NCBI GenBank assembly: GCA_043803105.1
Contig: JAZDKJ010000002.1
Span: 82,554 to 146,553, forward strand
Direction of reading: 5' to 3'
DNA from: Candidatus Woesearchaeota archaeon
GTDB lineage: Archaea; Nanobdellota; Nanobdellia; Woesearchaeales; JAZDKJ01
DNA length: 64,000 bases
In this document: positions 3,001 through 64,000 of the stretch, in pieces
How positions within the stretch are numbered: position 1 is the stretch's first letter
Layout of the letters: every line of letters begins with the position of its first letter
The notes under the pieces: generated by a model
What the model was told of the DNA's origin: nothing
Seen by the model: only the letters and a program-made list of their open reading frames with translations
Database searches by the model: none
Position numbers and translations under genes: made by a program

Positions 3001-4645
3001 CCGCAATTGTCATTGTTGAAGGCTGCGTGTTGCAGGTCGCCCCTGTTTTTGATATGTTCACATACACAGGTATGCTCTTATTGTAGGTAAAGCAGTAGCC
3101 GCTTCCCCCAAGACAAGTAGGCGCAACTGCATCATATTGCCACATCTCTCCAAATCCGTCAAGGTTTACTATGAATTGGTAATCAGATCCTGGGAAGCAG
3201 TTAGTGCATCCTGTTGACTGGTTGTTGTCTGCATCAAACTCGACAAATATTCTGAGGTTCTTGTTGCCTCCGCAGAATTTTGCATTACTTATGTCTGGTG
3301 CAAGTACCTGCCAATAGACAAAGTCTTGGTCCTGGTCAACCCATACACCTCCCATGTCATATGCAAGGCTTGCCCCCGGGCAGTTTTCTCCGGGCATTGT
3401 TCCCTGAACTACGTTTGGTGCAGCACCGTTGTAGCATCCTGGCCCGTTTGCTGCATAAGGTGGCTTGCTGAAGTCCATCATGGCCCAGTTGGGCTTTGCT
3501 GCCCCGCATGCATCCTCATAGCTATCCACAAGCCAGTCGCAGTCATTGTCTTTTCCATTGCCACAGTTATGCGCAACCAAGGGCTTTATTGCCGGATTTG
3601 TTTCATCGCAATCTTTTTTTCCGCAGCCGAATTTTCCAGAGCTGTTGAATCCATCTCCGTCAAGGTCTTCGCAATTCTTGTTCATGATGAATGTCCAGTT
3701 CTTGGTAATGTTTCCCAGAAGGGTGTTTGTTCCGTTAGTGCAGTTGACATTCCATTTGTATGCTCCGTTCCTTGGCGACACGCTGAACCTTTGTGTGCCA
3801 GGGGTTACATTTAGTGTTGCAGTTGCATTCCAAATGCCTGAGAAATTTGTTAATAGCGAGCAGTTGCTGTTTCTTGTGACCTGGTATGATAGGTTTACTA
3901 ATGCGCTTGTGAACTGTGTTCCTATGGGCGGCCCGTTTAGCTTCATAAAGAAAGGCTGCATGTCCTGCTGCCTGTTGAACGTCCAGTTCTCAGCTGACCA
4001 TATAGTCCATTTCGGGTTGAAGCATTTGATTTTCCACTTGTAGGTTCCTGGCGCAAGGTTTGCGGTCACTGTTATGTTGCGAAGGCCCGTCAGGTTAATG
4101 CCTGTCTCGTTCGCTCTCCATTCATTGCTGAAGTTTGTGTACAGTGTGCAGTTCCAGTTCATTGGCGTGGTTCTGAATTGGTTGAACTTGAAGACATAGG
4201 GCACTGATGGGCCTGATATATTCGCCTTGTCCGCTGGCTGCATCGGTTGGATTGGATTGTTGACATTTATTGTATAATTGTTTGTGGCGTTTATCCACCA
4301 GCTCTTGGTTCCATTGGTGGTGCAATTGACGTTCCACTTGTATGCTCCGAGCGGAAGGTCGAAACCCATCGGAATGACATAATTTCCTGCGCTGAGGTTC
4401 CCGCCTGCAGTTATGTTCTTTATTGTATCGTTTGTTCTCCAGCTCCCTGCGAAGTTTGACCACAAGGTGCAGTTGTTGAACCTCGTGCTCACATTAAAGC
4501 TTGCAGTGGCTAATCCCATGGGGTTTTTCGCATCATAGTTATCACTAGGGTATATTAGCTTGTCGACGACAGAATAGACGCAGATTGACAGAAGTATCAT
4601 AGCAGTTACGACTGCTAGTAACCAAAGTAGGCCTCTTTTTTGCAT
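1..4645 (-). CDS. Large secreted Cys-rich multidomain cell-surface glycoprotein (partial, runs off the window, >1500 aa)
   Basis: Absent from the ORF track, consistent with no stop in the window. Manual translation from ATG 4645 gives signal peptide MQKRGLLWLLAVVTAMILLSICVYS, three NC(T/S)LxxNF...YKWxxxC repeats, a MopE-like DLDGDG...DCD...CGNGKDNDCD motif, Cys-rich repeats, an FN3-like WSTNEP...YFYKI segment and many N-x-S/T sequons. Frame checked at 3667 and 1351. Confidence 0.85.
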   Translation of the reverse strand, partial: MQKRGLLWLLAVVTAMILLSICVYSVVDKLIYPSDNYDAKNPMGLATASFNVSTRFNNCTLWSNFAGSWRTNDTIKNITAGGNLSAGNYVIPMGFDLPLGAYKWNVNCTTNGTKSWWINATNNYTINVNNPIQPMQPADKANISGPSVPYVFKFNQFRTTPMNWNCTLYTNFSNEWRANETGINLTGLRNITVTANLAPGTYKWKIKCFNPKWTIWSAENWTFNRQQDMQPFFMKLNGPPIGTQFTSALVNLSYQVTRNSNCSLLTNFSGIWNATATLNVTPGTQRFSVSPRNGAYKWNVNCTNGTNTLLGNITKNWTFIMNKNCEDLDGDGFNSSGKFGCGKKDCDETNPAIKPLVAHNCGNGKDNDCDWLVDSYEDACGAAKPNWAMMDFSKPPYAANGPGCYNGAAPNVVQGTMPGENCPGASLAYDMGGVWVDQDQDFVYWQVLAPDISNAKFCGGNKNLRIFVEFDADNNQSTGCTNCFPGSDYQFIVNLDGFGEMWQYDAVAPTCLGGSGYCFTYNKSIPVYVNISKTGATCNTQPSTMTIAVKKSTIIPITGMNFETNSFTENNANEGGGPNDMLRGGAGNDPFMGAGPKEGGMNCFQFDNSEQNCNNGTDDFACKYNTQFHRCEPDFAQFNDCSNACFSCQNETACNTSATGICQWTTNPKGSPPKICVESFNPFEGGGGGDCSNDCYACFADLQCNYSKANGGSTGYGGCQWFTDPFSGKGFCEVKGFKVPSCTAQDWNGCTSKQSCESDGWNWSLSYYLCNKNSTYEICFDGIDNDNDALIDCMDKAECYTVSECGGGIDTLTGGGQFAGQDPFQAMQDFMFQGMDNGPPVMIGTDQPYDTPPDRTYADILGTGVKDGAKSIFFGAMLRNVSTLKLTGQQCNLTGTNALRLIFALDTDQRNDTGCQIRVGQTNYNGLEFIIKMYVNGSITYTAYKCLNETQNQWVISAMRLSAMPDMLCNPPEEDGGPFTEAAPAVVMTQKSDINNPKDTLRVIAVTVNGSWWSNFSRIKAFDQLEAYYTPGSVDFNPVDCFKEPTKCGAAFATMGEGKYMPIEDCMRPGDEDLDGNANCNDSDCSFAPWCQGQYNPLMDKEAPRVSMNTVQEFDMGAFVMWSTNEPTNGSLYFYNTSSTCSGNYITIMEPFQPGFQAEMQFKPWHNVMVDNYQNRLGFNLYQSTTYFYKIRNCDRADPANCGQSKCMNFTTRGSKQNVTLMFNLSNTGNNFVDNMNVSINSQKLTKGNFINFNYTNNVNLTFKGPIPGTPNFWEITFVNADLATATSLKLTDSMLANFTSGKYVVGMANGLWLEIAQKLGAEFIIVRLPADGQDLTKCDDSGENCETITSDTLKLNSGTIGGEQYSYWKIPVTYGFSTYTTSGGVNYTLTFATVWNNLAVSVGLNNTKLINVTNGDNFTRTYNISVVSRGAGMSYRINGSYPRLNNVQFSAYQKRILNLTLWATSAGLSYFDVIAVLSTNATIKLNSSDDLPGGSLILNASEVQGTNITIKLMTPGNGTVAEINTSINLKFNVTSNNIGGLLYVNCS

Positions 4646-4789
4646 TAAAACACCCCAGTGTTATCTGTTTTCATAAAAACCTCCAGTATATATTATTTAA
4701 ATGTTTCCATTTGAGTATCTATTTTGCATCAGTTATATTGCTATGTGGATATTTGGCTCTTGCTGTTATTCTGTCCATATAAATGAGAA

Positions 4790-6239: not shown

Positions 6240-6773
6240 CTAGAATTCGTTCCTTGAGAATATGCTCACAGGGGTGCTGTGTGCAATAAAGCTCATGTCA
6301 TGTTTGAACATTGTGGGATGGTAATGTGGGCCATAGACTATGAGCTTGCCATTCAGCTCATTTGCAAGCTTTAGTTCAAGTTTGTGGTTTAGGCTATCAG
6401 GGTAATAGAAGATTATGTCGTAGTTTTTCAGGTTGTGCTCATGATAATCGCCATTCAAGAGGTTTGCCTTTATCTTCAGCCGCTTCTTTATCTCTTGTGC
6501 CTTGTCATGCAGCTCCTTGTCTATCTCTATGCCTGTTGCACTGGTAAAGAGCGATGCCACCATTACTGCCTTTCCGTCGCCACTGCCTATGTCTATGAAC
6601 CTCTTGTAATTTTGTAGCCTCAGCCTTTGAAAGAGTGTGTATAGGTCGTCAGCCACTGACATTGACCAATACCCAACCCCTGTGTCCTTTAAGGGCAGCC
6701 TTCCCCTGCTCAAGAGCTGGTTGTAGAACTTGTCATACTCGCTTTTGATGGAGAGAAACTTGGCTAGGTTCAT
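6240..6773 (-). CDS. Class I SAM-dependent methyltransferase
   Basis: FIDIGSGDGK and TGIEID motifs. Confidence 0.8.
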   Translation of the reverse strand: MNLAKFLSIKSEYDKFYNQLLSRGRLPLKDTGVGYWSMSVADDLYTLFQRLRLQNYKRFIDIGSGDGKAVMVASLFTSATGIEIDKELHDKAQEIKKRLKIKANLLNGDYHEHNLKNYDIIFYYPDSLNHKLELKLANELNGKLIVYGPHYHPTMFKHDMSFIAHSTPVSIFSRNEF

Positions 6774-51979: not shown

Positions 51980-52807
51980 TTATTCTTCGTGCATAACCTC
52001 TTTAAAACGTTTGAATTTTAGTGAGCATGTTTTTTCCAATTCTTTTATTTTCTCTTTTTGGTCTCCTAGCCCTTTCCAATCAAGGATTATCATCTCTACA
52101 GGCTCAACACTTCTTTTTATTGCTTGCACAATCAATTGGCTGTCCAGCTCTTTTAGCGCATATTTTGCGCAAATATGCCCGACAGCATAGTTTGTGCCGG
52201 AAAGTATCCTGTTCGCTAGCTGGTTGTAATGCCCTCCTCCGAGCACCATTACTGTTGGAAAAGTCTCTTCCCTTCGGTCAAGAGTTTTCATTATTGTCTC
52301 AGCGATTATTCTACCAGCCTCCTCATTGCTCCATTGGCTCTCATCGCTGCCTATCTCTATGAAGAAGCATGGCTTGTCTACGAGTGGGCCATGATGCGTT
52401 GCCTCAAGCGTGACTTCATACTGTAAGCCTTTTGCAGCTGTCTGTAGTTCAAGAAGTGCGATTCTAATGACTGATGCCGGCACAATGCAAAGATGGCCAT
52501 CCTGGCCTCCGAGCTCTGCCTTTCCCCAGTTGCCTGGAACGTGGACAGAAAGCGAGTGCTTTCCAGCCTCTGAGCGGTGCTTTGTCGCAAAGACAAAAAG
52601 GTCTGCTTCAATTTGTTTGTCCAGATGTTCGCAGTCTATCGGTTGTTTCGATGGTGTGTATACCCTGCAATCACCCAGGGAATACACCTTTTCTCCTTCA
52701 AATGATTCAGATGTCTCAGCAAAGCCCAGCGCCAGCAATTTTGTCTTAATGTTCTGGCTTGCAGGGTCAGGCTTCGCAGTGATGATCGCAACCTTTTGGA
52801 ATTTCAT
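51980..52807 (-). CDS. dtdA: D-aminoacyl-tRNA deacylase (DTD2/GEK1 type)
   Basis: KHRS, SVHVPGN, EATHHGP, FIEIGS, GGGHY. Confidence 0.93.
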   Translation of the reverse strand: MKFQKVAIITAKPDPASQNIKTKLLALGFAETSESFEGEKVYSLGDCRVYTPSKQPIDCEHLDKQIEADLFVFATKHRSEAGKHSLSVHVPGNWGKAELGGQDGHLCIVPASVIRIALLELQTAAKGLQYEVTLEATHHGPLVDKPCFFIEIGSDESQWSNEEAGRIIAETIMKTLDRREETFPTVMVLGGGHYNQLANRILSGTNYAVGHICAKYALKELDSQLIVQAIKRSVEPVEMIILDWKGLGDQKEKIKELEKTCSLKFKRFKEVMHEE

Positions 52808-52866
52808 GAAGAAAAGTCAACCAATTGAATCTTAAATATGTTTGCAAAAATTAGAAATTTCTTTGA

Positions 52867-53313
52867 TTACCAGCCTGGCAGCTTGCAGTTATCATCTACT
52901 ACCTTTTGCAACCCTTTATCATTCCCAAAAGTCTGATCGATAGTGTCCATGTTCATGGTCCCTTTTGGAAAATAGCATTCAAGATTCATGACATCGTTTA
53001 TTTTCCTCTGGAAATGGCAGGTTTTGTTTACCTGGCCGAGGATTGTCATCTCGATGCTCGTTGTGCCGTCGCTTCCTATCATCTTGGTAGTCACTGGCAA
53101 ACATTGGTTCATCCTGTTTATGAAGCAGAAGGAGTCTTTGGTTTTGCTGCAATCAACCATTGCCATTTCATTTGCAACAGGTGCAACCACATCTTGCTCT
53201 GTGCTGGCCAACCCAGCCTTGTTCTCAACAGTAGGTTTTTCTGTTTGTGCGCATCCGCAAAGGAATAAGGTAGCGGCTAAGATTAAAACAAGAAATTCAA
53301 CTCTCTTTTTCAT
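52867..53313 (-). CDS. Putative lipoprotein with paired cysteines
   Basis: MKKR plus hydrophobic stretch ending LCGC; six further Cys. Confidence 0.7.
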   Translation of the reverse strand: MKKRVEFLVLILAATLFLCGCAQTEKPTVENKAGLASTEQDVVAPVANEMAMVDCSKTKDSFCFINRMNQCLPVTTKMIGSDGTTSIEMTILGQVNKTCHFQRKINDVMNLECYFPKGTMNMDTIDQTFGNDKGLQKVVDDNCKLPGW

Positions 53314-53458
53314 ATGAATCACCCTATTCGCAGATAACGTGTTGCTGATTTATAAAAGTATCCAAGAATAACAGAGTCCCTAATATGTTAAGGATTTGAA
53401 TTATAGCCTTAACAGTAAATATTATAAACAACCTAGAAACCCTTAACACGGTGATATC

Positions 53459-53887
53459 ATGAAAAAACTAACCCAGACAATTACTTTTAAGGCAACTCCG
53501 CATGAGGTTTTTGAATTAATCATGGATTCTAAAAAGCATTCAGCATTTACCGGAGAAAAAGCAGTGACCAGCAGAAAGGTCGGCGGCAAGTTTAAGGCTT
53601 ATGGCAAGTATATTTCTGGCGAAAATCTCGAGATTATAAAGGACAAAAGAATTGTCCAAATCTGGCGTGCCTCAGATTGGCCAAGAGGCATCTATTCCAA
53701 GGTATCTTTTGAATTTGAGAAATCCGGAAAAAATACAAAATTGAAATTTTCGCAGGAAGGCGTGCCAGAGTCACAATATGCAGAGATTAAGGAAGGATGG
53801 TCTGACTTCTATTGGGGGCCTATGAAGAAATTTCTGGAAAAAAAAAGAAAAAAAGGCCTTATCGCCTTCTTATCAGCCAAACTATAA
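53459..53887 (+). CDS. SRPBCC/AHSA1 domain protein
   Basis: ATPHEVF, VGGKF, IVQIWR..DW, EGWSDFYW. Confidence 0.88.
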   Translation: MKKLTQTITFKATPHEVFELIMDSKKHSAFTGEKAVTSRKVGGKFKAYGKYISGENLEIIKDKRIVQIWRASDWPRGIYSKVSFEFEKSGKNTKLKFSQEGVPESQYAEIKEGWSDFYWGPMKKFLEKKRKKGLIAFLSAKL

Positions 53888-54746
53888 ACCAGATTATCGC
53901 TGCAACAACCGCAAACGGCAGTAATGCGAATATTATGTAGAACACTGCGTTTGTGCTGCCTACAAGCGTCCTGATCAGGTCTGAGAACTTGACAAATAAA
54001 AGGTTTGCATACCCAGATTGTTTTTCGTTCAGGCTGACCTGCACCTGGGAATAGTCTACTTGCTGGTCCTTGTTCTTCAGTGAATCTTGCAGGTATTTTA
54101 TTGTTCTTTCCTCGTCAAAAATCCTGTCGTTTATTGTGATCTGGTCTGCAACTATGGTTGCGGTCTTATACATCTCCTTGTATCTTAGAAGCCTTTCCTG
54201 CTCAACCTGCAATTCAATTTCGTTGTTTGTGTACGCGCCAGTAATATCTTGGGTGCTCTCACTAAAAGAAGTCACCTCGCCTATTTCCTTGAGCTGGGCC
54301 ACCAAGGCATCATATTTTGCCTTCTCCACTTTTATTTGGTAATAACCGCTCCTGTAAGCTTTCTTGTCTTCTCCGTATTTGTTCACATTTTCATTCAATA
54401 GATAAGACCCGGAAACAGTCACTATTGCATGCAATTTGTCTTGTGCACTATCAAACTGCCCGTGCTCTGCAGACAATCCCATGCTTGAGGTTTTGATGAG
54501 TTTTCTCTCAGTCACCCCAGGAGCAAAGTCGCTGCTTGGTGTCGGGTAATAAGACTCCCGCATTGCGCTGTAGCCACCACCAGCCGCCATTTGGTCAGAG
54601 ACTTGTGAATAACCTGCTGTTTTTGTCAATGCTCCAAGATTAGAAGAGATGCCTCCAAGGCCACTCATCACCATCAAAACAAGTAGCAGTATGACAATGA
54701 TGAGCCAATTGTCAGTTATTTTACTTAATTGTTGTTTGAATCCCAT
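53859..54746 (-). CDS. DUF4349 domain membrane-anchored protein
   Basis: ERKLIKT, QDITGAY, QVDYSQV; N- and C-terminal TM. Confidence 0.8.
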   Translation of the reverse strand: MGFKQQLSKITDNWLIIVILLLVLMVMSGLGGISSNLGALTKTAGYSQVSDQMAAGGGYSAMRESYYPTPSSDFAPGVTERKLIKTSSMGLSAEHGQFDSAQDKLHAIVTVSGSYLLNENVNKYGEDKKAYRSGYYQIKVEKAKYDALVAQLKEIGEVTSFSESTQDITGAYTNNEIELQVEQERLLRYKEMYKTATIVADQITINDRIFDEERTIKYLQDSLKNKDQQVDYSQVQVSLNEKQSGYANLLFVKFSDLIRTLVGSTNAVFYIIFALLPFAVVAAIIWFIVWLIRRR

Positions 54747-54860
54747 TGTTAATCACCCAAAGGCAGGTTATATATGCTGCAATATAAATATTGTGATAGT
54801 TACAACTTGGCTTGAAGTTAACACTAAAGATTTTTAAACTAATTCCTTTACTCATTGCCC

Positions 54861-55106
54861 ATGGAATATGACCTTGAGCTTAACAGAGTTGTCGCAACCA
54901 TCAAGAAGCAGAAAGCAAAGCTGGTCTGCATCCAGCTGCCTGATGGCTTAAAGCCTTTGGCAGGCAAGATTTCTGATGAGATCTCTGCGAAGACTAAAGC
55001 CAAGGTCTTGATCTGGGCTGGCTCATGTTTTGGCTCTTGCGACCTTCCTCAAGGCTTGGAAAAGCTGGGGGTTGACCTCCTCATTCAGTGGGGGCACTCA
55101 CCTTGA
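54861..55106 (+). CDS. Stand-alone N-terminal domain of diphthamide synthesis protein Dph2/Dph1
   Basis: IQLPDGLK, CFGSCD, LIQWGHS; only 81 aa. Confidence 0.8.
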   Translation: MEYDLELNRVVATIKKQKAKLVCIQLPDGLKPLAGKISDEISAKTKAKVLIWAGSCFGSCDLPQGLEKLGVDLLIQWGHSP

Positions 55107-55999
55107 ACTATATTCTTTTGGCAGCGGCCTCTTCCTTGTGCTTTGCAATAACAAATATCATCGACAAGCATATGGTTTCGAGATGGGTGAAAAAGCCCTT
55201 GACTTTCACAGTGGTGATAAACCTCCTTGAGACAGTCTGGATGCTGGCCTTGATCCTTCCCTGGAGGGGTTTTCATCTCCTACCATTGCCGCTCCTTCTG
55301 ATGTCTCTTGGGTTAGGTGGGTTCTTTACCCTTTATATCTGGCCTTACGTAAAAGCACTGTCCATAGAAGAGGCTTCGCGCGTTATTCCCATATTTCAAC
55401 TCAGCCCTATTTTCGTCTTCTTCCTGTCTATGTTTTTCATCCATGAGTCTCTAACCAGTAAACTTTTGGTAGGCTTTGTCCTGCTTATAGTTGGCGGCTT
55501 TCTGATAAGCCTGAAGTCAATCAGGGGCATTTTTAAGCTCAGCACTGCCTTCTATTTCATGCTGCTTGCAAGTCTTATGTGGGCAGTGATCATGGTCTCG
55601 CAAAAATACCTGTTTGGCCTTGCGGACTTTTTTGACGTCTTTGTCTGGTCAAGAATTGGCGCACTTATGGTAGCTTTGGCTATTCTTCTGTCGTCTTCTG
55701 TGCGCAGGGATTTGTTTTCTATCTTGAGGAAAGCGCCTGTTCGGGTCAAGTCCGTACTAATAGCAAACGAAGGAGTCGCTGTGGCCGCTTTTTTCCTAGG
55801 TGGTCTTGCATTGACTCTTGGCCCTGCATCCATTGTCTCTGCTTTGAACGGCCTGCAACCTCTCTTTGTTCTCGCCATTGCAATAATACTCTCATTGTGG
55901 CTTCCCTCTTTCTTAAAAGAAGACCTTGCCAAGACCAATATTCTCTTGAAGATTGCTGCCATACTCATAATCTTTGCTGGCTTGTGGCTGGTGTACTGA
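55103..55999 (+). CDS. DMT/EamA family transporter
   Basis: NIIDKH, EEASRVIPIFQLSPIF, QPLFV; TTG start inferred from paralog. Confidence 0.85.
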   Translation: MNYILLAAASSLCFAITNIIDKHMVSRWVKKPLTFTVVINLLETVWMLALILPWRGFHLLPLPLLLMSLGLGGFFTLYIWPYVKALSIEEASRVIPIFQLSPIFVFFLSMFFIHESLTSKLLVGFVLLIVGGFLISLKSIRGIFKLSTAFYFMLLASLMWAVIMVSQKYLFGLADFFDVFVWSRIGALMVALAILLSSSVRRDLFSILRKAPVRVKSVLIANEGVAVAAFFLGGLALTLGPASIVSALNGLQPLFVLAIAIILSLWLPSFLKEDLAKTNILLKIAAILIIFAGLWLVY

Positions 56000-56000
56000 G

Positions 56001-56891
56001 ATGAACTACATCTTGTGGTCTTTGCTTGCTGACCTCTTCCTTGCCATAGTCAACATTGTTGACAAGCACATGATTGAGAACTGGTTGCGTAAGCCAGTTA
56101 GTTTTTACATTGTTGTGACTCTCCTTGAGTCGGTCATCTTCTTGATTATCCCTTTTAGGGGGCTTGTTATTCCCTCATTGCCTTTGTTGCTCCTCTGCCT
56201 TTCAGTTGGCGTTGTCTGGGCTGTCTCTGCGTTCCTGTACTTTTCTGCCTTCCAGCAAGAAGAGGCTTCAAGGGTTGTCCCTCTCTTCCAGCTCTCCCCT
56301 ATTTTCGTCCTCGCTTTATCAGCCTTGTTCCTCAGGGAGTCCCTGACTTCAAGGATGCTCGAAGGATTCTTCCTACTTGTCTTTGGCGGCATCCTAATCA
56401 CTTCCAGGCGTTTGAATGGAAAATGGAAAGTCTCAAGGATTTTGTGGATTGCCTTGGCACTCTGCCTTATGCTTGCAACAATAACAACGAGCGAGAAATA
56501 TATCTACTCACAAATCCCTGTTATAGACGGCCTTTTGTGGCTCAGGATTGGGGCCCTTATCCCCATACCTTTCATATTGTCCCAAAGGCGCTACCGTGAA
56601 GAGGTCGCTTCCACCTGGAGAAGGATTCCTGGCACAAGGAAATTTGTGCTGCTTGGAAATGAGCTCCTTACCCTTGCAGGCTACATTGCTGGCTCTTTTG
56701 CTGTTGCCTTAGGTTCACCATCAATAGTCTCCGCTCTTGGAGGCTTTCAGCCTCTGTTTGTCCTTGTCTTTGCCGTCTTGCTATCATTGTGGCTCCCAAA
56801 AGTTTTAAAGGAGGAACTTGCGCCAGGTACTCTGGCAATGAAGTTGCTGGCAATTTTGCTCATGTTTGCAGGTTTATGGTTGGTATACTAA
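56001..56891 (+). CDS. DMT/EamA family transporter (tandem paralog)
   Basis: NIVDKH, EEASRVVPLFQLSPIF, QPLFV; same GLWLVY terminus. Confidence 0.85.
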   Translation: MNYILWSLLADLFLAIVNIVDKHMIENWLRKPVSFYIVVTLLESVIFLIIPFRGLVIPSLPLLLLCLSVGVVWAVSAFLYFSAFQQEEASRVVPLFQLSPIFVLALSALFLRESLTSRMLEGFFLLVFGGILITSRRLNGKWKVSRILWIALALCLMLATITTSEKYIYSQIPVIDGLLWLRIGALIPIPFILSQRRYREEVASTWRRIPGTRKFVLLGNELLTLAGYIAGSFAVALGSPSIVSALGGFQPLFVLVFAVLLSLWLPKVLKEELAPGTLAMKLLAILLMFAGLWLVY

Positions 56892-56892
56892 A

Positions 56893-57342
56893 ATGATTTC
56901 AGACCTACAGTTTTTGTTGGTTGGCGTTGTCTGTTATCTTGGTCTGCTTGCAGGCCTAATCATATCTCTGCTTTCAAAAGAGGAGTTAAAGCCCGGAAGA
57001 AAATATTTTGTCTTGCTGCAGCATGCGATTCTTATTGTCTCTCTTGTCATCTTTCTTTATAGCAATGAGTTGAATATCTTTCTGGTGATAACACTCGGAG
57101 CATTGCTTGCCTTATTGTTGGCCCTCACCTCAAAGGTCAGCCAGAGTATTGTTGCCTATCCATTCATGGCGCTTTTCCTCTCGCTAAGCAGGTATAATTC
57201 AAGCCTCTTCTTTTTGCTTGCCGCATTGGCTTTCCTTTATGGCTTGCCTACAGCAAGCCTCCAAATGGAAAAATCTTATCTCAAGCCTTTCCTCCTAAAC
57301 CTTGGCTTTTTGGTTGTGCTCCTGATTTCTGCCTTGGTCTAG
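56893..57342 (+). CDS. Hypothetical membrane protein
   Basis: Highly hydrophobic 149 aa; EELKPGRKYF. Confidence 0.7.
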   Translation: MISDLQFLLVGVVCYLGLLAGLIISLLSKEELKPGRKYFVLLQHAILIVSLVIFLYSNELNIFLVITLGALLALLLALTSKVSQSIVAYPFMALFLSLSRYNSSLFFLLAALAFLYGLPTASLQMEKSYLKPFLLNLGFLVVLLISALV

Positions 57343-57397
57343 CAAGCTTTATGTAGGATTCAATACAGTATCAACGAGAAGTCCAAAATGATTGACC

Positions 57398-58270
57398 CTA
57401 CACAAAGGATCTGCGCAGGCTTATTCTAGCCCTTTCATAATAGCTTTTTTGAAGCCCGAGTGCCTTCCTGAAACCTTCAGGTAGTTTTGTGCCTTCATTT
57501 GTTTCCAGGCTTGCTATCTTTGCGTCTTCATAACCCAGGCACTCACTGATTTTGGAGTCATTGACCACTAGCCTGTTGATTCTGCTGCCAGTAAGATTGA
57601 TTCTTGCCTCTGTCCTTGTCAGGTCTACCTCTCCTGCTGTTGTGTCAGTGAAGTCAATCAGCAGACCTTTTTTATGTTCTTCAGCATCCATTCCGAGCTG
57701 TCTGTATTTCTCCTTCATCTGTACAGGCAATGCTCTGTCAGAAAGCACAAGCTGCGTCACTCTGCGCGCATAGATTCCCTCTGCAAAAACACCCCTGTAG
57801 CTAATAAAACACCCTACACTCATGTTGTTGTTACACACTTCTTTGATATTGCAGTTTCCCAGGTCCAGATATTGAAGGATTGTTGTGCCGTTCATGTTCA
57901 GCGTCTCGGCTGTGGTATCGGTGATTCTTGCAGAACCATCTATTAGAAGGCCTTCCAAACCCACGTCAGAATATTCTGCCTTTAACCTTGATGCAACCAG
58001 GTCACCTTCAATGCGTGTCTTACTGATTCTCAGCCCACGCAGCCATGTTGAATTGCTCAAAATAATGTTCTTTGCGAACCAAAAGTTATCTACAGACAAT
58101 GGTTGTTCATATACACAATTTCCCAACAGAAGGTTCCCACCCACAAAAACCTGCTTTGGGTCAAACTTTGCCACCTGCTTTAGGTCGTTTGCCCCAAAGT
58201 CTCTGTCAAAAGTGAACATCCTAAAAGGCACCCCTTTGCTGTAAAAATGGTTAATTTTTGTCATGATCAT
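57398..58270 (-). CDS. Hypothetical protein with beta-solenoid-like repeats
   Basis: Recurring I.G.L and L....I spacing. Confidence 0.6.
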   Translation of the reverse strand: MIMTKINHFYSKGVPFRMFTFDRDFGANDLKQVAKFDPKQVFVGGNLLLGNCVYEQPLSVDNFWFAKNIILSNSTWLRGLRISKTRIEGDLVASRLKAEYSDVGLEGLLIDGSARITDTTAETLNMNGTTILQYLDLGNCNIKEVCNNNMSVGCFISYRGVFAEGIYARRVTQLVLSDRALPVQMKEKYRQLGMDAEEHKKGLLIDFTDTTAGEVDLTRTEARINLTGSRINRLVVNDSKISECLGYEDAKIASLETNEGTKLPEGFRKALGLQKSYYERARISLRRSFV

Positions 58271-58342
58271 GTTGTTATGCCATACTTTTTAAAAGTTTGT
58301 GAAGAAAATATAGTGTCGAATCTACAAAAAGATTTAAATGGT

Positions 58343-58990
58343 TTATGCTTTTGTTTTCGCGCTTGTCCTCTCTGCCCAGGCATATCTTTTCATAAGCAAG
58401 GATCCTCCGCGATAAACCCCATACGTGATAAAAAGCGCAGCAAAGACATCAATGCTGTAATGCACATGCATTAACAGAACTGTGCTTGCCATCACTATGG
58501 TTGACACAAGAAAGAATTTTCCCATTTTCTCTTTTCTAAAAATGAGATATCCCAGAAAGGGTAAAGCAGTATGGCCTGAGAAGAACAGGTCATTCCGATA
58601 ATAGAACAGGTTGTACAACTCTGGCACACGGGAAATTATCGCTCCAGCAGGCATGCTCAGGTGCGTGAGTGAAACAAAGAATCCCCTAACTATCAATACA
58701 AGGCTCGCAAGAATGATTACCGTGTGCAGCTTTCTTACCCTGAAGAAAAGCGGATAAAGGAAGAGTGTAAAGACAACAAACATGTATCCGTATACAAGTA
58801 ATGGGGTTAGGTCAACCACTGGAATATGGTCAAGTATCAAATCCTTAGCAGAACCGTCACCTGCCTGGTCTGCATAAGAGCTTGTAAAGTGCAGCACATA
58901 AGCTGCAAGAATCAAGAAGCCAAGGCTTATCAATATCTGCTTCTTGTGAGCCTGTAGCTCCTGCCTCCAGGATATTAACCTCTTATGCAT
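58343..58990 (-). CDS. PAP2-like membrane phosphotransferase (sphingomyelin/IPC synthase-like)
   Basis: DLFFSGHT and HYSIDV motifs, about 6 TM. Confidence 0.8.
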   Translation of the reverse strand: MHKRLISWRQELQAHKKQILISLGFLILAAYVLHFTSSYADQAGDGSAKDLILDHIPVVDLTPLLVYGYMFVVFTLFLYPLFFRVRKLHTVIILASLVLIVRGFFVSLTHLSMPAGAIISRVPELYNLFYYRNDLFFSGHTALPFLGYLIFRKEKMGKFFLVSTIVMASTVLLMHVHYSIDVFAALFITYGVYRGGSLLMKRYAWAERTSAKTKA

Positions 58991-59199
58991 CTACACACCC
59001 AAAAATAATCTTGTATTGAGTAAGCTTTTTCCCCTTTTATACTTTGCGGAATTGTGTTTCATGTGCTGTCGGCCGTCTAGGGGCATTTAAATTATCCAGG
59101 CATTTCAATACAGAATATGAGGTACAAAGCAATCCTGCGTTTTGTTGCAATTGTCCTCACAGTACTATTTGCTTCAAGTTGTGTCCACCCCACCAAGGG

Positions 59200-60570
59200 T
59201 CAAGTACTCCTAAAGAATTCTTCGTCGCCCAATATCCATACCTTACAGCTTTGTAGGAAGACTGTTGACGGTATTTTAATGTTTTCTGGTACGGACCTTG
59301 ACTTGGGCACATTAATTGGCCAGATTTCGCCCAGCAGTCTTTGATATTCTTTTAGTGTTAGGTAGTAGCTCACTTTAACTATGTCAGCGCATTCTTCTCT
59401 CAGTTGGTCAGGGAAGTACTTGTATTTTTGCGGGTTTGCCAGGCTGAAGGTTTGTGGCTCGAGGAAGTCGCTTGCAAGTGTCTCTATCTCTTGGTCTGTG
59501 AATTCGATGAACTCCTTTCTGGATTTGAACTTAAGGCCGAAACTCGAGTCAGCCATTTTTCCAGGGTTCTGTTGTACATCTGCAACATCTGTAATTTTCG
59601 TATAAACTATTCCCCTATCAATATCCACCACTGCGTTGCCAATATGGTTATTGGTTTCTTCCAAGTCATGGCCCCAGCTAAAGCCTGCAGCTGTGAGTCT
59701 TGCCTTTACATTTCCCAGTTCGTAAGCCAATGCATGAAACAGCGAGTCACGATAGAGCCGGCTCTCCTTTCCTAGCTCGTATCGCGTGAAATGATAGATT
59801 AATTCATCCAGTCTTGTGTCTGAGTCTATCTTGAAGGCAGGTACATAGCTGCTTTTTCCACCTAAATGATGGATTCTGCTTCTGACGCAGTCATCCTCTG
59901 ATTTAGGAATTTGCTTGTAGTTACTGTATCTTTGAGGAACAAATACTGTGTCGGCGTCTTCTGTCCTCATCCTAAAGAATTGAAAAGTTGTCCCGTTCTT
60001 GGCTCTGCCTATATTGACCTTGAATAGGGAAGAATATGCCAAGAGTGCATTTGTAAATTCCGTTTTGTTAAGAGGCGTAATGAGAGCTGAGCTCTCACCA
60101 TATTTTTTAGGTTTGTTGAATTTTCGCACAAAGTCCCATATGTCTGCTTTTACGTAAGGATGCATAGACTCCTCAATAAAGTAAGGTGTGCTTGCCAAAC
60201 CCATAAAACCCTTAGCCAATAAAAGCAATGATTTGATGTGTTCGTCTATTGCCTCATCCAAACCACACCACCCTCTGCGGCTCATTTCAGGTGTAATTGT
60301 TCCAAAGGCTATTCCCTTGAGCTTTATGTAGTTGCCTTCCCTGTCGCGTACAATCCCGCTTCGAAATCCGGACGCAAGGCCTATGCCAGTGTCTTCTGTT
60401 GCCATGTCAAGTTTTGTCCCTGTTTCAGCAAGTCTCTCTTCTATTAGCCAAGCCTTTGGTTCACAGTTTCCGCTCTTGACCTTTCTTAATCTTAGCTTTT
60501 CCCGGGGAAAGAATAGTAGATCATCAAATGTGTAGGTGTCAAAGTTCAATAAGTCTTCAGGCTCCATCAA
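59200..60570 (-). CDS. Hypothetical protein with kinase-like/SelO-like motifs
   Basis: IKLKG...E, AGFSWG...HIGN...ITD. Confidence 0.65.
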   Translation of the reverse strand: MMEPEDLLNFDTYTFDDLLFFPREKLRLRKVKSGNCEPKAWLIEERLAETGTKLDMATEDTGIGLASGFRSGIVRDREGNYIKLKGIAFGTITPEMSRRGWCGLDEAIDEHIKSLLLLAKGFMGLASTPYFIEESMHPYVKADIWDFVRKFNKPKKYGESSALITPLNKTEFTNALLAYSSLFKVNIGRAKNGTTFQFFRMRTEDADTVFVPQRYSNYKQIPKSEDDCVRSRIHHLGGKSSYVPAFKIDSDTRLDELIYHFTRYELGKESRLYRDSLFHALAYELGNVKARLTAAGFSWGHDLEETNNHIGNAVVDIDRGIVYTKITDVADVQQNPGKMADSSFGLKFKSRKEFIEFTDQEIETLASDFLEPQTFSLANPQKYKYFPDQLREECADIVKVSYYLTLKEYQRLLGEIWPINVPKSRSVPENIKIPSTVFLQSCKVWILGDEEFFRST

Positions 60571-60713
60571 CCATTGTTGTTGCCAGAAGACTTTTAAAGA
60601 TAACCCATGTGGAAACCTTTCCCACTAAAAATGAAGTTTAGTACTTGCAGCATAAACATATAAGCTCAAACTTATCATTAAATCCCAGCTTAATTGCCGG
60701 GAGGTAGGTGAAA

Positions 60714-60872
60714 ATGGAATATCAAATGACCTGTGAGGATGGATTTACTGTAAGGAGCAAGAGCAAGGACGAGGTTGCAGGCATGGGTGTCTGGCACGTT
60801 ATGATGATGCACCCAAACGAAAAGATTTCAATGAACGACGCCTTGAAGATGGTCAAACCAGCAGCTAAGTAG
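60714..60872 (+). CDS. Small Cys/His/Met-rich protein (DUF1059-like, 52 aa)
   Basis: MEYQMTCEDGFTVRSKSKDEVAGMGVWHVMMMHP...; strong GGAGGTAGGTGA RBS. Confidence 0.7.
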   Translation: MEYQMTCEDGFTVRSKSKDEVAGMGVWHVMMMHPNEKISMNDALKMVKPAAK

Positions 60873-60942
60873 GTATTTTGGTATACGAGGAGCACCCATA
60901 AAGAAATGCTTCTTGGGTTTCTCATGGGATTGAGGTGAGACT

Positions 60943-61167
60943 ATGAAAGAATATGTTGATATCTTTATTGTGCCAGTTCGAAAGAAGAAATTGGCAGCCT
61001 ATCGTAAGACTTCGATGGGTTTTGGAAGGCTTATGCTGGAATATGGGGCAAAACGTTATGGTGAGTTTGTTGGCGATGACCTGAAGCCAAAGAACATGCC
61101 TGACATGGGAAACAATGCATTTCCTTCTTCAGTATTTGTCGAGATAAGAATTGTGTCTCTACCATAA
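60943..61167 (+). pseudogene. Truncated DUF1428-family gene
   Basis: YVDIFIVPV..KKLAAYRK...EYGAKRY.E.VGDD then loses similarity after about 62 aa; GAGGTGA RBS. Confidence 0.6.
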
Positions 61168-61386
61168 TTGCTCTTTCTAGGTACACCTGTTTTTTGTCTC
61201 TTGAAGCAGCGCCGGAATTCCATCACGCACTGACACGACTTGGTATATAGAAATACAGTCTTGCAGTCCGCTCTGTTATCTCTCTTTGAAGTCCACCTCT
61301 CTTCCTTGCAATTTCAAACAGAGCTTGGGCGTCTATTGTTTGAAGAAGGTTTGGCCTACAAAAAGTTTATATAATTGTGGGTTTGA

Positions 61387-61983
61387 ATGTTTAATATGAG
61401 GCAGTTATGTGTAATAATTATTGTAATAACACTATTATGTATAGGTTGTACTTCCATCAAGAATAAGGATGCTCAAAACAATAAGATTGATTCTATTATA
61501 AATAAAATAGATAATAACAAAATCTCTGAATTAACTGAAGAAGAAAGAGCTATCTGGGGAAATGTTGTGGATAAAGCAAATAGAGGAGAGGAACTGTCCC
61601 CTGATGAAACTAAACTTCAAGAAAGATTAGAACAACTCACAAAAGAACAGAATCCATCTAGATTCCTTCCGGACAAATGTGTTTTAAGACCTCCCTTTAA
61701 TTGCGTGGACTTTAACGTTTCAAAATCTCAGATAGAGCTTACAATTTCACACTCGTTTGGTAATGATTTAAAAAATATTGCCGTAAGTGTTAATTCCTGC
61801 CAAGAATCATCAACTATTGATGTTCTTAAAGACAGAAATAGCAATACCTTTGTTTTAGAAAAATGCAATAATACCCAATCTGAAGACACAAATAAGTTAA
61901 AGGAAGAAATTCTGATCAAATACCAAGATAGTTCTGGCTCGTTACAATCTTCAATAGGTGAATTATTTTCCAAAGTCAATTAA
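61387..61983 (+). CDS. Putative lipoprotein with pilin-like C-terminal domain
   Basis: LLCIGC lipobox-like; PSRFLPDKC...C.DF; AT-rich. Confidence 0.65.
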   Translation: MFNMRQLCVIIIVITLLCIGCTSIKNKDAQNNKIDSIINKIDNNKISELTEEERAIWGNVVDKANRGEELSPDETKLQERLEQLTKEQNPSRFLPDKCVLRPPFNCVDFNVSKSQIELTISHSFGNDLKNIAVSVNSCQESSTIDVLKDRNSNTFVLEKCNNTQSEDTNKLKEEILIKYQDSSGSLQSSIGELFSKVN

Positions 61984-62208
61984 TTAATGAAGCCAAAGCT
62001 CCTTGCTTCTTTATATTTATGTATCACTCCGTTTATTAGATAGATGGACACATTCTCGATATTTCTGAAGAAATCCGTCGGAACTTTGTAACCGACGGAG
62101 AGCATAACTCTACTTGAACCATAATTTCTTGCAACAATTTCCCAAATTCCGTTTGGAAGCTATCAGAAATTTATTTAGAACTCTGCCTAAACATCATAAA
62201 TTAATCAT

Positions 62209-62265
62209 AAAACAAAAGAAAAAACCGTGCACTATAAACAAAAGGTTTTCGGACTATTGGGGGCT
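62209..62265 (-). repeat. Second copy of the 23S rRNA 3' end, trailer and T-tract
   Basis: Matches 63032-63090 with one substitution and a 2 nt A-run length difference. Confidence 0.92.
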
Positions 62266-62267
62266 AC

Positions 62268-62713
62268 TTAGCCTGAGAATTCCAAGTAAGCCAAGTCCTC
62301 TGCAGCGAAAACGTGTAGCCCAACTTTATGGCTCTTAAGAAAGTCCATTCCAAGGATTGAAGGCATTGTCATTGCAGCCTGCTTCTTCTTTTCTGACATC
62401 TTTGTCGTCTTTAATGCTGTCAGGTCCAGTGGTATTGCAAAATGACTTTTTTTATCTTCAGTAGGAACTTGTAACGTAAATTTCGGCAACTCGACTTGTT
62501 TATACCTTGACCCTGCAAAGTCCACCTCACCGAAAACAACCTTATCATGCATGGGAATCTGCAAGCGAGCAACATCCTTTGCGCTTAGGAAAGAGAATTC
62601 ACTCCCGTATCTACTACAAACGCCATTGCTGTTGGTGGACAACGTACCTTTGAACACAGGATAACAGAGTTGAGAAAAATCCTATTGCCAATAATTTGTA
62701 ATTGAACTCTCAT
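62268..62713 (-). pseudogene. Retropepsin-like aspartic protease, frameshifted at the DTG motif
   Basis: ATG 62713 gives ...AMAFVVDTG; the other frame continues SEFSFL...SILGMDFLK; one base missing at 62604-62606. Confidence 0.8.
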
Positions 62714-62946
62714 AATACTGAGGTCACTTTACTTACAAACTCAACCAAGACTTTACAAGGATTAATCTTGTTTTTCCTAAGTCTTGCCACAAGCTTTATA
62801 GCATCCTTGTCAGAATCCACAACTGATTCATTATAGATTGCCACGAACATCTCGTTATATTGCTCCTTTAGGGCTTTCACATTTTTCTTGTACCATTCCA
62901 GGTCTTTCTGCCCTGAAACCAGCATTTGCACAATCTTAGACTCCAT
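62710..62946 (-). CDS. DUF5678-like small protein
   Basis: W...N...LKEQY...FVAI....VVDSDKD...L; ATGA overlap with the protease gene. Confidence 0.75.
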   Translation of the reverse strand: MESKIVQMLVSGQKDLEWYKKNVKALKEQYNEMFVAIYNESVVDSDKDAIKLVARLRKNKINPCKVLVEFVSKVTSVL

Positions 62947-63031
62947 ACCAACTGTTATTAAATTTTGGTCCTATATAAAAGTTGCCTAAGAATTCTAGTC
63001 TTTCTTCTACAAAAGACGAAAAACACACACA

Positions 63032-63090
63032 AAAACAAAAGAAAAAAAACCGTGCACTATAAACAAAAGGTTTTCGGACGATTGGGGGCT
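63032..63090 (-). repeat. Native copy of the duplicated 23S 3' end/trailer
   Basis: Minus strand AGCCCCCAATCGTCCGAAAACCTTTTGTTTATAGTGCACGG followed by a T-tract. Confidence 0.92.
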
Positions 63091-64000
63091 GCATGCTGAA
63101 CACCTCGTTACCTTGGTGCGTACACACCAGCTCCATTAAACTTGTATTTTGCAAGAGTCCTTCAACGATGTCTCTTTTTGAGGAGGGTTTCGAGCTTAGA
63201 TGCTTTCAGCTCTTATCCCTGATGGCGTGGCTGCCCGGCGTACCCTGTCGGATAACCGGTAAACTAGAGGCCACGGATCCCCGTTCCTCTCGTACTAGAG
63301 GATCCTTCCCCTCAGACATCGAACATTTCCAGTAGATATTAAACAAACTGCCTCACAGCGTTCTGAACCCAGCTCACGAACCCTTTTAATTGGTGAACAC
63401 CCACACCCTTGGACGCTGCTGCACGCCCAGGATAGGATGAGCCGACATCGATGGAGCAAGCCGCGCCGTCGATAGGAGCTCTCGGGCGCGACGACTCTGT
63501 TATCCCCGGGATAGCTTTTCTGTCATACTTAGGCCCCATCAAGGAGCCATAAGGGTTCGCTAGACCCAAGTTTCCTTTCTGCATTTCTTCTTGGTTGAAA
63601 TACAGTCAGGCTAGCTTTTGCTCTTGCGCTCTACTCTCGATTTCTAACCGAGATGAGCTAACCTTTGGGCCCTGCTGATACATTTTCAGCAGGGTGCCGC
63701 CCCAGCCAAACTACCTGCCTATAAGTGTCTTTTCTCTTTAAGAGAAAGTGAGCGATATAAGTTTCACAGGGTAGTGTTTCAACTTTGCCTACACTTTTTC
63801 TAGCGAAAAAGCTTTAGCAGCTACTACCTACTCTACACAGCAAAGCTCACATCACAATCACAAGCTGTAGTAAAGTTCCACGGGGTCTTTGCTTCCCACT
63901 GGAGGTCACTGGCTTTTGCACCAGTATAGTGTGTTCAGGGGACTCTAACTAGGGACAGTGAAGACCTCGTTACGCCTCTCATGCAAGCCGTCAATAAAAC
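63064..64000 (-). rRNA. rrl: 23S rRNA, 3' part (partial; 3' end approximate)
   Basis: Minus strand has GGATAACAG, TCGATGTCGG, GTGAGCTGGGTT and sarcin-ricin loop AGTACGAGAGGAAC. Confidence 0.97.

Follow-up and report, generated by a model that had tools for sequence, protein, structure and literature searches.

We wondered how the 3′ end of a 23S rRNA gene came to stand twice, on either side of two small genes, in a Woesearchaeal genome, and what kind of element these two genes represent. The locus lies in the last 64 kb of contig C2 of the bin G000 (Candidatus Woesearchaeota archaeon, GCA_043803105.1; 13 contigs, 1.56 Mb), a stretch of 64,000 nucleotides (nt) which we refer to as the window. 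Here, a 23S rRNA gene is followed by a cassette of two genes, a DUF5678 gene (open reading frame 1, ORF1) and a gene encoding a retropepsin-like protease (ORF2), and the cassette is followed by a second copy of the rRNA gene end. The reading towards which we lean is that the cassette is a non-autonomous, toxin-antitoxin (TA)-like selfish module which entered the 23S 3′ end by Campbell-type recombination. The features of the locus are the following.

63062..64000, minus strand: archaeal 23S rRNA gene, 3′ third only (model positions 2051-2987 of Rfam RF02540, 874.1 bits)
63032..63090, minus strand: direct repeat copy A, 59 nt, contiguous with the 23S rRNA gene (BLAST and Rfam boundary)
63032..63061, minus strand: trailer part of copy A, with the predicted 3′ arm of the stem for pre-23S processing and, after it, oligo-T terminator tracts
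62972..62980, minus strand: TATA-box-like element TTTTATATA, 26-34 nt upstream of the ORF1 ATG
62710..62946, minus strand: ORF1, 78 amino acids (aa), DUF5678 (PF18929, E 3.9e-6)
62585..62713, minus strand: 5′ piece of the retropepsin-like gene, 42 codons, ending in ...AFVVDTG and then running out of frame to a stop
62268..62657, minus strand: 3′ piece of the retropepsin-like gene in the -1 frame, with homology from about 62603 (SEFSFLSAKD...) and the stop at 62268-62270
62209..62265, minus strand: direct repeat copy B, 57 nt, a displaced duplicate of the 23S 3′ end, the processing arm and the T-tracts (T6)

Because Rfam sets the 3′ end of the rRNA at 63062, copy A consists of the last 29 nt of the 23S rRNA gene and 30 nt of trailer. 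The rRNA part includes the 3′ strand of helix 1 and is followed by the trailer TATAGTGCACGG, a run of eight T residues (T8) and CTTTTGTTTT. The two copies are 94.9% identical across 59 columns of the BLAST alignment. They differ by one substitution (C63080 in copy A vs A62255 in copy B) and by the length of the T-run on the minus strand (T8 vs T6). A 30-nt core shared by both copies occurs exactly twice in the window and twice in the entire assembly, and it was matched in none of 100 shuffles. A preliminary description of this locus had reported a near-duplicate repeat of 57-59 bp with one substitution, and BLAST, core count and shuffles agree with it: the repeat around the cassette is real and statistically secure. 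An exact scan of metagenomes using a 23-nt piece of the repeat gave no matches. As the end of the window is also the end of contig C2, the 23S rRNA gene breaks off at model position 2051 and lacks its 5′ leader.

The insert between the two copies measures 766 bp and holds only ORF1 and the retropepsin-like gene, both in the direction of the rRNA. Read along the minus strand, the order is 29 nt of rRNA, trailer, an 85-nt spacer, ORF1, the retropepsin-like gene, 2 nt and copy B. Copy B thus begins 2 nt past the protease stop, in agreement with the position given before, and probably acts as the terminator of the cassette. The match of ORF1 to PF18929 scores 27.0 bits, above the gathering cut-off of 23.2, and related Atlas clusters are also named DUF5678. 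The ATG of the retropepsin-like gene overlaps the ORF1 stop as ATGA. The gene content, the ATGA coupling and the orientation had been described correctly; what had been overlooked is that the protease gene is frameshifted. Alignment to homologs places the break directly after DTG, at about 62603-62606, and the two pieces match positions 3-41 and 39-150 of the hidden Markov model in two different frames. The VVDTG catalytic motif is kept in the 5′ piece of this broken frame. Full-length ORF2 homologs have 150-155 aa and are 50-58% identical to the window protease, and PF13975 was matched by 17 of 17 aligned ORF2 relatives (best E 2.6e-7). The window gene was probably inactivated by the frameshift since the insertion. 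The cassette is present in a single copy in G000.

The preliminary description had also considered that the cassette is expressed by read-through from the rRNA. This is disfavoured, since a TATA box of the cassette's own precedes the ORF1 ATG by 26-34 nt and the T8 run separates the cassette from the rRNA. Most homologous cassettes likewise have TATA-like boxes 25-40 nt upstream of ORF1, and we consider TTTTATATA the probable promoter of the cassette.

A profile search with the protease found 18 loci in species-representative genomes, mostly titled Woesearchaeota or other DPANN, and 53 further loci on metagenome contigs, giving 71 loci besides the window. ORF1 precedes ORF2 in 61 of the 72 sources. 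The neighbourhoods vary and consist mostly of housekeeping genes or of other TA pairs (MNT/HEPN, PIN, ParE, HicB). At 50 valid loci (two more were discarded because their coordinates were faulty), 400-nt flanks, one upstream of ORF1 and one downstream of ORF2, were compared to score flanking repeats. As a null we used 600 mismatched flank pairs, whose 99th percentile was 28.2 bits. Eight of the 50 loci scored above this value: the window (87.7 bits), L057 (60.0 bits), L031 and L045 (44.1 bits each), L018 and L041 (36.2 bits), L023 (34.2 bits) and L027 (32.2 bits). L022 scored exactly at the threshold. Once shared flanks were merged, the eight loci represented six independent contexts. Longer flanks added L019, with a 76-nt repeat, and L028, with a 100-nt repeat.

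The repeat sequences differ at all loci and therefore derive from local sequence and not from the element. An intron-containing tRNA supplies the repeat at L023, which covers its final 17 nt, T-loop to discriminator base; at L027 the repeat overlaps the last 11 nt of the signal recognition particle (SRP) RNA plus 5 nt. Together with the 23S rRNA of the window, these amount to three independent insertions at the 3′ ends of stable RNAs, all in the same direction. Protein genes are used in the same way: the L031 repeat comprises the last part of a cysteinyl-tRNA-synthetase-like gene, stop codon included, and the repeat at L019 and L057 is the end of an Eco57I-type methylase gene. An adjacent RNA gene was not found at 20 further cassette loci. 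The distal copy starts 2-8 nt past the ORF2 stop in five cases, and the left arm ranges from 22 to 97 nt.

The distal copy of L019 is an open frame across 61 codons that ends at the same stop and contains one in-frame indel. Its codon differences are 12 synonymous and 18 non-synonymous (13/7/19 by codon position). Such differences suggest a diverged allele of the gene end, not a fill-in duplication that has decayed. An empty site of the L023 tRNA was sought in 25 relatives of G041, but only genes and tRNAs matched and the downstream flank was not conserved. For the window, the same-genus genome G001 matched G000 with 67-85% identity on short pieces only and was too divergent and fragmented for synteny.

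At three loci of orthologous context (L018, L045 and L064) the repeat, read by eye, is the B recognition element (BRE)/TATA region of a downstream intron-containing tRNA. This tRNA-promoter repeat is 13-22 nt long and its copies are identical within each locus; at the same position L018 and L064 have C and L045 has G. The copies appear to evolve in concert.

Repeats present in three copies were found at L028, where they separate two TA-like units, and on contig C6 of G000. The L028 copies lie at 2285-2382, 4635-4734 and 6630-6701, and a related arrangement at L024 has copies at 2182-2357 and 3415-3594. At both loci direct repeats of 100-220 nt part adjacent TA-like units (MNT/HEPN, and helix-turn-helix plus DUF6036), so that small arrays of two-gene units are formed. 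G000 itself contains other direct repeats of 39-49 nt, 88-92% identical, which bracket 1-3 kb (C6:294926-297608, C8:134045-136971, C7:13277-15392 and C6:352795-353889). A three-copy array among them adjoins a VapB/ParE pair, and another repeat encloses an MNT/HEPN-like pair and a radical-SAM gene, followed by HicB. The others enclose PRC-barrel genes and a NUDIX gene, and several of these repeats contain T-runs or a TATA box.

Is the 23S 3′ end used more than once? Of 151 genomes of the order, 103 were matched in a DNA search with the last 399 nt of the window 23S rRNA gene; G166 has the relative closest to the C2 gene (88%). A second case was found in G098 (contig C38, locus L148). There, a 122-nt direct repeat with two substitutions lies at 314-435 and 2478-2599 in reverse-complement coordinates and comprises approximately the last 95 nt of that genome's own 23S rRNA gene, the trailer and a T-run. 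The insert of 2,042 nt carries two ORFs in the same orientation, of 348 and 258 aa, as well as a TATA-like box; the ORFs are unrelated to the window cargo and match no Pfam or PHROG family. In the window as well as in G098 the repeat ends just past the T-tracts. In G098, the distal copy is followed by the motif AGCGACAGCT, which resembles AGCGATAGCT found after the single-copy 23S genes of relatives. In many Woesearchaeales (L005, L007, L013, L014, L100, L148, L151), AGCGATAGCT or a closely similar sequence is present 40-100 nt past the 23S T-tract, and CTGATAGCT lies about 45 nt past copy B in the window (approximately 62150-62165). Because the AGCGACAGCT/CTGATAGCT motif follows the distal copies, the distal copy carries the ancestral downstream context in both genomes. 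The preliminary description had expected comparable structures in related genomes, including 23S 3′ duplications around different cargo. Both expectations were borne out, the first by members of the same cassette family between repeats at tRNA, SRP RNA and protein-gene 3′ ends, the second by G098. The same survey revealed that in about a dozen genomes (e.g. G167:C65, G125:C35 and G146:C31) the 23S 3′ match is split after query position 42 by about 45-50 extra bases, which mark a putative small lineage-specific insertion or intron.

What might the two proteins do? The AlphaFold2 model of ORF1 (predicted local distance difference test, pLDDT, 90.6) is an alpha-alpha-beta-beta-alpha-beta unit without a match below E 0.7 in the PDB. 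An AlphaFold model of an ORF2 homolog (pLDDT 88.8) has a retropepsin fold; its top PDB match is the Rickettsia protease APRc (5c9f, E 3.6e-6), and further matches are retroviral proteases and DDI1. PHROGs held no family for ORF1 or for the ORF2 homolog P0004, and P0004 weakly matches the PADLOC candidate family PDC-M08B (E 1.7e-6). A complex was modelled from the intact pair of L016 instead of the broken gene of the window, using alignments of 17 and 24 rows. The ORF1-ORF2 model scored 0.86, the best of three controls 0.01; the mark applied to this score is reached by 116 of 157 solved complexes and by 2 of 215 mismatched pairs. The runs share at least 95% of contacts with partner pLDDT of at least 90, and the modelled interface takes in protease residues 38 and 40, the latter being the catalytic Asp40. 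The model supports, but does not show, binding of ORF1 to the ORF2 protease, and we read ORF1 as a predicted inhibitor or antitoxin-like partner that would restrain the protease.

The fate of the two genes in the family was followed at 61 distinct loci. ORF2 is intact at 38, split at 10, N-terminally short at 6 and cut by a contig end at 7 of them. ORF1 is intact at 47 of the 61 loci, and at 7 of the 10 loci at which ORF2 is split. We rejected a programmed frameshift of ORF2 since the breaks lie at different positions in different loci. The pair fits a TA-like or defence-like module because the larger gene is preferentially lost, TA neighbours are frequent and a complex is predicted.

How could such a module have reached the 23S 3′ end? 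We propose that a small circular DNA carrying a copy of this end arrived and underwent Campbell-type recombination with the chromosomal 23S 3′ end, which would duplicate the target. A recombinase supplied in trans could have joined the two molecules site-specifically, or the host machinery could have done so through homology. With its helix-1 strand, processing-stem 3′ arm and T-tract, the proximal copy would keep the rRNA complete; the cassette would end in the distal copy, which would supply its terminator. The frameshift in the protease gene would have followed later, and the repeats would remain a substrate for scarless loss of the cassette as a 0.82-kb circle. An attachment (att)-like insertion of a TA-like module at this site had been suggested from the outset. 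Comparative evidence and the modelled complex speak for it, but the recombinase was not found. As stated in the preliminary description, no integrase is adjacent: none was found among the 12 ORFs in 51980-61983 beside the cassette. Elsewhere, G000 encodes a XerA-like gene and three tyrosine recombinases of 429-451 aa, with no repeats spanning the latter and no tRNAs beside them. Retro-insertion is disfavoured, as reverse transcriptase was not found in G000 and the insert has its own promoter, and Cas1/casposase was not found in G000 either.

Several observations weigh against insertion of a selfish module by Campbell-type recombination. About 42 of the 50 tested loci lack a flanking repeat above the null. 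Besides G098, no duplication was found within about 1.4 kb of the 23S 3′ end in sets of 11 and 28 flanks (0/11 and 0/28), which overlap in some genomes, the larger one including the unpublished genomes G162 and G142. No integrase was present in or near the cassettes among 72 ORFs at 11 repeat-positive loci, and tblastn of the 71 homologous loci gave a single weak XerA-like match as the only integrase match. Two other cassette-bearing genomes have only a XerA-like recombinase, or a XerA-like recombinase and a short fragment. That one cassette family has at least seven different repeat sequences is hard to reconcile with a single site-specific recombinase, and repeats of 16-18 nt are short for homologous recombination. 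The fold search of the ORF1 model against the PDB did not find a recognisable DNA-binding fold, and the frameshift in the window could be an assembly error. The window 23S rRNA gene stands at a contig edge, and the bin has a second, complete rRNA operon on contig C8 (16S 150105-151702, 23S 152874-156141), whose 23S rRNA gene is 73.6% identical to that of the window over 998 nt. From about 158 kb onwards, C8 has a G+C content of 0.55-0.60 instead of 0.42, and its tetranucleotide usage no longer correlates with that of the remaining bin (correlation about 0). Judged by this composition, C8 is a chimeric join just downstream of its rRNA operon.

These last points raise the question of an assembly artefact at the rRNA edge, in which the cassette and one repeat copy were threaded in from another molecule or strain. 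The position of the 23S rRNA gene at the very end of C2, the chimeric C8 and two different 23S sequences in the bin would fit, but copies A and B differ, which excludes a collapsed assembly repeat or loop. A chimeric join at copy A would still leave the cassette beside a copy of some 23S 3′ end, tetranucleotide usage over the last 20 kb of C2 is native (r 0.96-0.99), and independent assemblies repeat the architecture at other RNA genes and at another 23S. As a chimeric join alone cannot make two non-identical copies around the cassette, we rate an artefact as very improbable. Both 23S sequences of the bin are equally Woesearchaeales-like. We also note that the first 60 nt or more of C2 reappear, reverse-complemented, at the end of C10 and that C9 and C13 end in the same 60 nt; such shared ends could be assembly-graph overlaps that link contigs. 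Rather unlikely, in our opinion, is that the cassette is the relic of a larger integrase-carrying plasmid or virus which used the 23S 3′ end as attB and lost all but the addiction module and the att copies through internal deletions. Repeats that overlap gene 3′ ends do resemble classical att sites, as does the tRNA segment from T-loop to discriminator base at L023, and the right boundary fixed close to the ORF2 stop together with the variable left arm is what variable deletion end points predict. G000 also encodes three candidate recombinases. However, at none of the 71 homologous loci does the cassette lie inside a larger element or beside an integrase, the same extreme reduction would be needed independently at no fewer than six sites (at least six), and no repeats span the G000 integrases.

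Transposition-like insertion by a trans-acting enzyme with widely staggered cuts, in which the repeat would be a filled-in target-site duplication, would explain why each locus has its own repeat from local sequence and why the boundaries around the two genes are tight. Four independent repeats even cluster at 16-18 nt (L027, L023, L018 and L022). Yet the repeat lengths are not fixed and extend from 16 to at least 122 nt, terminal inverted repeats were not found at the cassette ends, the distal copy of L019 resembles a diverged coding allele and three-copy arrays exist. Neither Cas1 nor reverse transcriptase was found in G000. Campbell-type recombination is favoured over staggered cuts because the repeats overlap gene 3′ ends and because of the allele-like L019 copy, the three-copy arrays, the repeats of up to 122 nt and the lack of terminal inverted repeats, and we think transposition quite unlikely. 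Finally, the duplication might have been kept because it is useful, with copy B as an alternative 3′ arm of the processing helix or with cassette expression coupled to rRNA read-through. In relatives with complete genes the leader (...AAACCATGCAT...) pairs with a trailer motif (...ATGCATGGTTT...) beside helix 1 in five of five co-folds, and by eye the motif is present in the trailers of 11 of 11 relatives. The window equivalent TATAGTGCACGGTTTT is unchanged in copies A and B, and copy B holds the whole stretch from the helix-1 strand through TATAGTGCACGG to the T-run. It is thus structurally possible that copy B forms a complete alternative 3′ arm for the pre-23S processing stem. On the other hand, T8, T4 and T4 tracts precede the cassette with its own TATA box, and usefulness would account for the retention of the duplication, not for its origin. 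We also considered an intrinsic hairpin in the repeat, but on its own the 3′ region is no more stably folded than shuffled sequence (z 0.29), which does not help the processing idea either. There is little to recommend usefulness as the explanation.

We compared the cassette, read as a module inserted by Campbell-type recombination, with known systems. Cis-mobilizable elements (CIMEs) are att-flanked, integrase-less remnants of integrative elements. As in CIMEs, direct repeats flank the cassette, one of them covers a conserved gene 3′ end and leaves the gene intact, and no integrase is found inside; tandem arrays of three repeats at loci related to the window cassette are a further likeness. 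Unlike CIMEs, the window element is only 0.77 kb long, consists solely of a two-gene module and targets the 23S rRNA 3′ end. Its family moreover occurs with many unrelated repeat sequences, and a cognate integrase-bearing element was not found. Archaeal integrative elements have att sites at tRNA genes (PMC4158269).

The cassette resembles type II TA systems in its two small genes, which share an orientation, overlap by ATGA and begin with the smaller one, and in its predicted complex. It also shares with them the varied neighbourhoods, often beside other TA pairs, and the frequent inactivation of the larger gene with survival of the small one. In contrast to type II systems, neither protein can be placed in a described TA family, a retropepsin-like protease takes the part of the putative toxin and ORF1 gave no match to a DNA-binding fold; the PDC-M08B match of the ORF2 homolog could point to defence. 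The predicted fold of ORF2 and its DTG(S) active-site motif are shared with Rickettsia APRc (5c9f) and the RVP domain of Ddi1, from which it differs by a sequence identity of about 14%, the DUF5678 partner and the frameshift of the window copy.

Integron cassettes and clusters of attC sites lacking integron-integrases (CALINs) occur in Archaea including Nanoarchaeota, and TA genes make up 10.5% of the annotated archaeal cassettes in one study (PMC9668308). Like these, the window cassette is small, integrase-less and tightly bounded, and integron cassettes often carry TA genes and are moved by a recombinase in trans. In contrast, the window repeats are a local chromosomal gene end and not attC hairpins, there is no array beside intI/attI, and the cassette has its own promoter. 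An attC reading was rejected, as neither strand of the repeat contains a GTTRRRY core. The cassette is best read as belonging with the att-flanked, integrase-less elements, with the possibility that it represents a distinct class of minimal mobile element.

Beyond the cassette, within 2 kb, lies a truncated DUF1428 gene (window 60943-61167, plus strand). It matches profile positions 1-52 of 102 only, and no frame continues it.

Among open-access papers and preprints we found none on such cassettes or on an att site at a 23S 3′ end. We tentatively entertain the wider idea that DUF5678 and retropepsin modules may be undescribed, minimal, integrase-less selfish elements of DPANN archaea. They would consist of an addiction pair only, with the 3′ end of a stable RNA (or a promoter) as a portable landing pad at which host recombination inserts them without damage. 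For genomes assembled from metagenomes there is a note of caution, as the rRNA edges in the G000 bin carry both a real insertion and chimeric joins. If the reading of the window and G098 is true, the 23S 3′ end with its terminator is a recurrent landing site in Woesearchaeales. This would add the 3′ end of the large-subunit rRNA, in two Woesearchaeal lineages, to the archaeal integration sites, which so far have been mostly tRNA genes. The picture that would emerge is one of TA-like pairs that move as a bare two-gene cassette bracketed by a duplicated gene end, and DUF5678 would gain a testable role as the binding partner, and probably the inhibitor, of a retropepsin-like protease.

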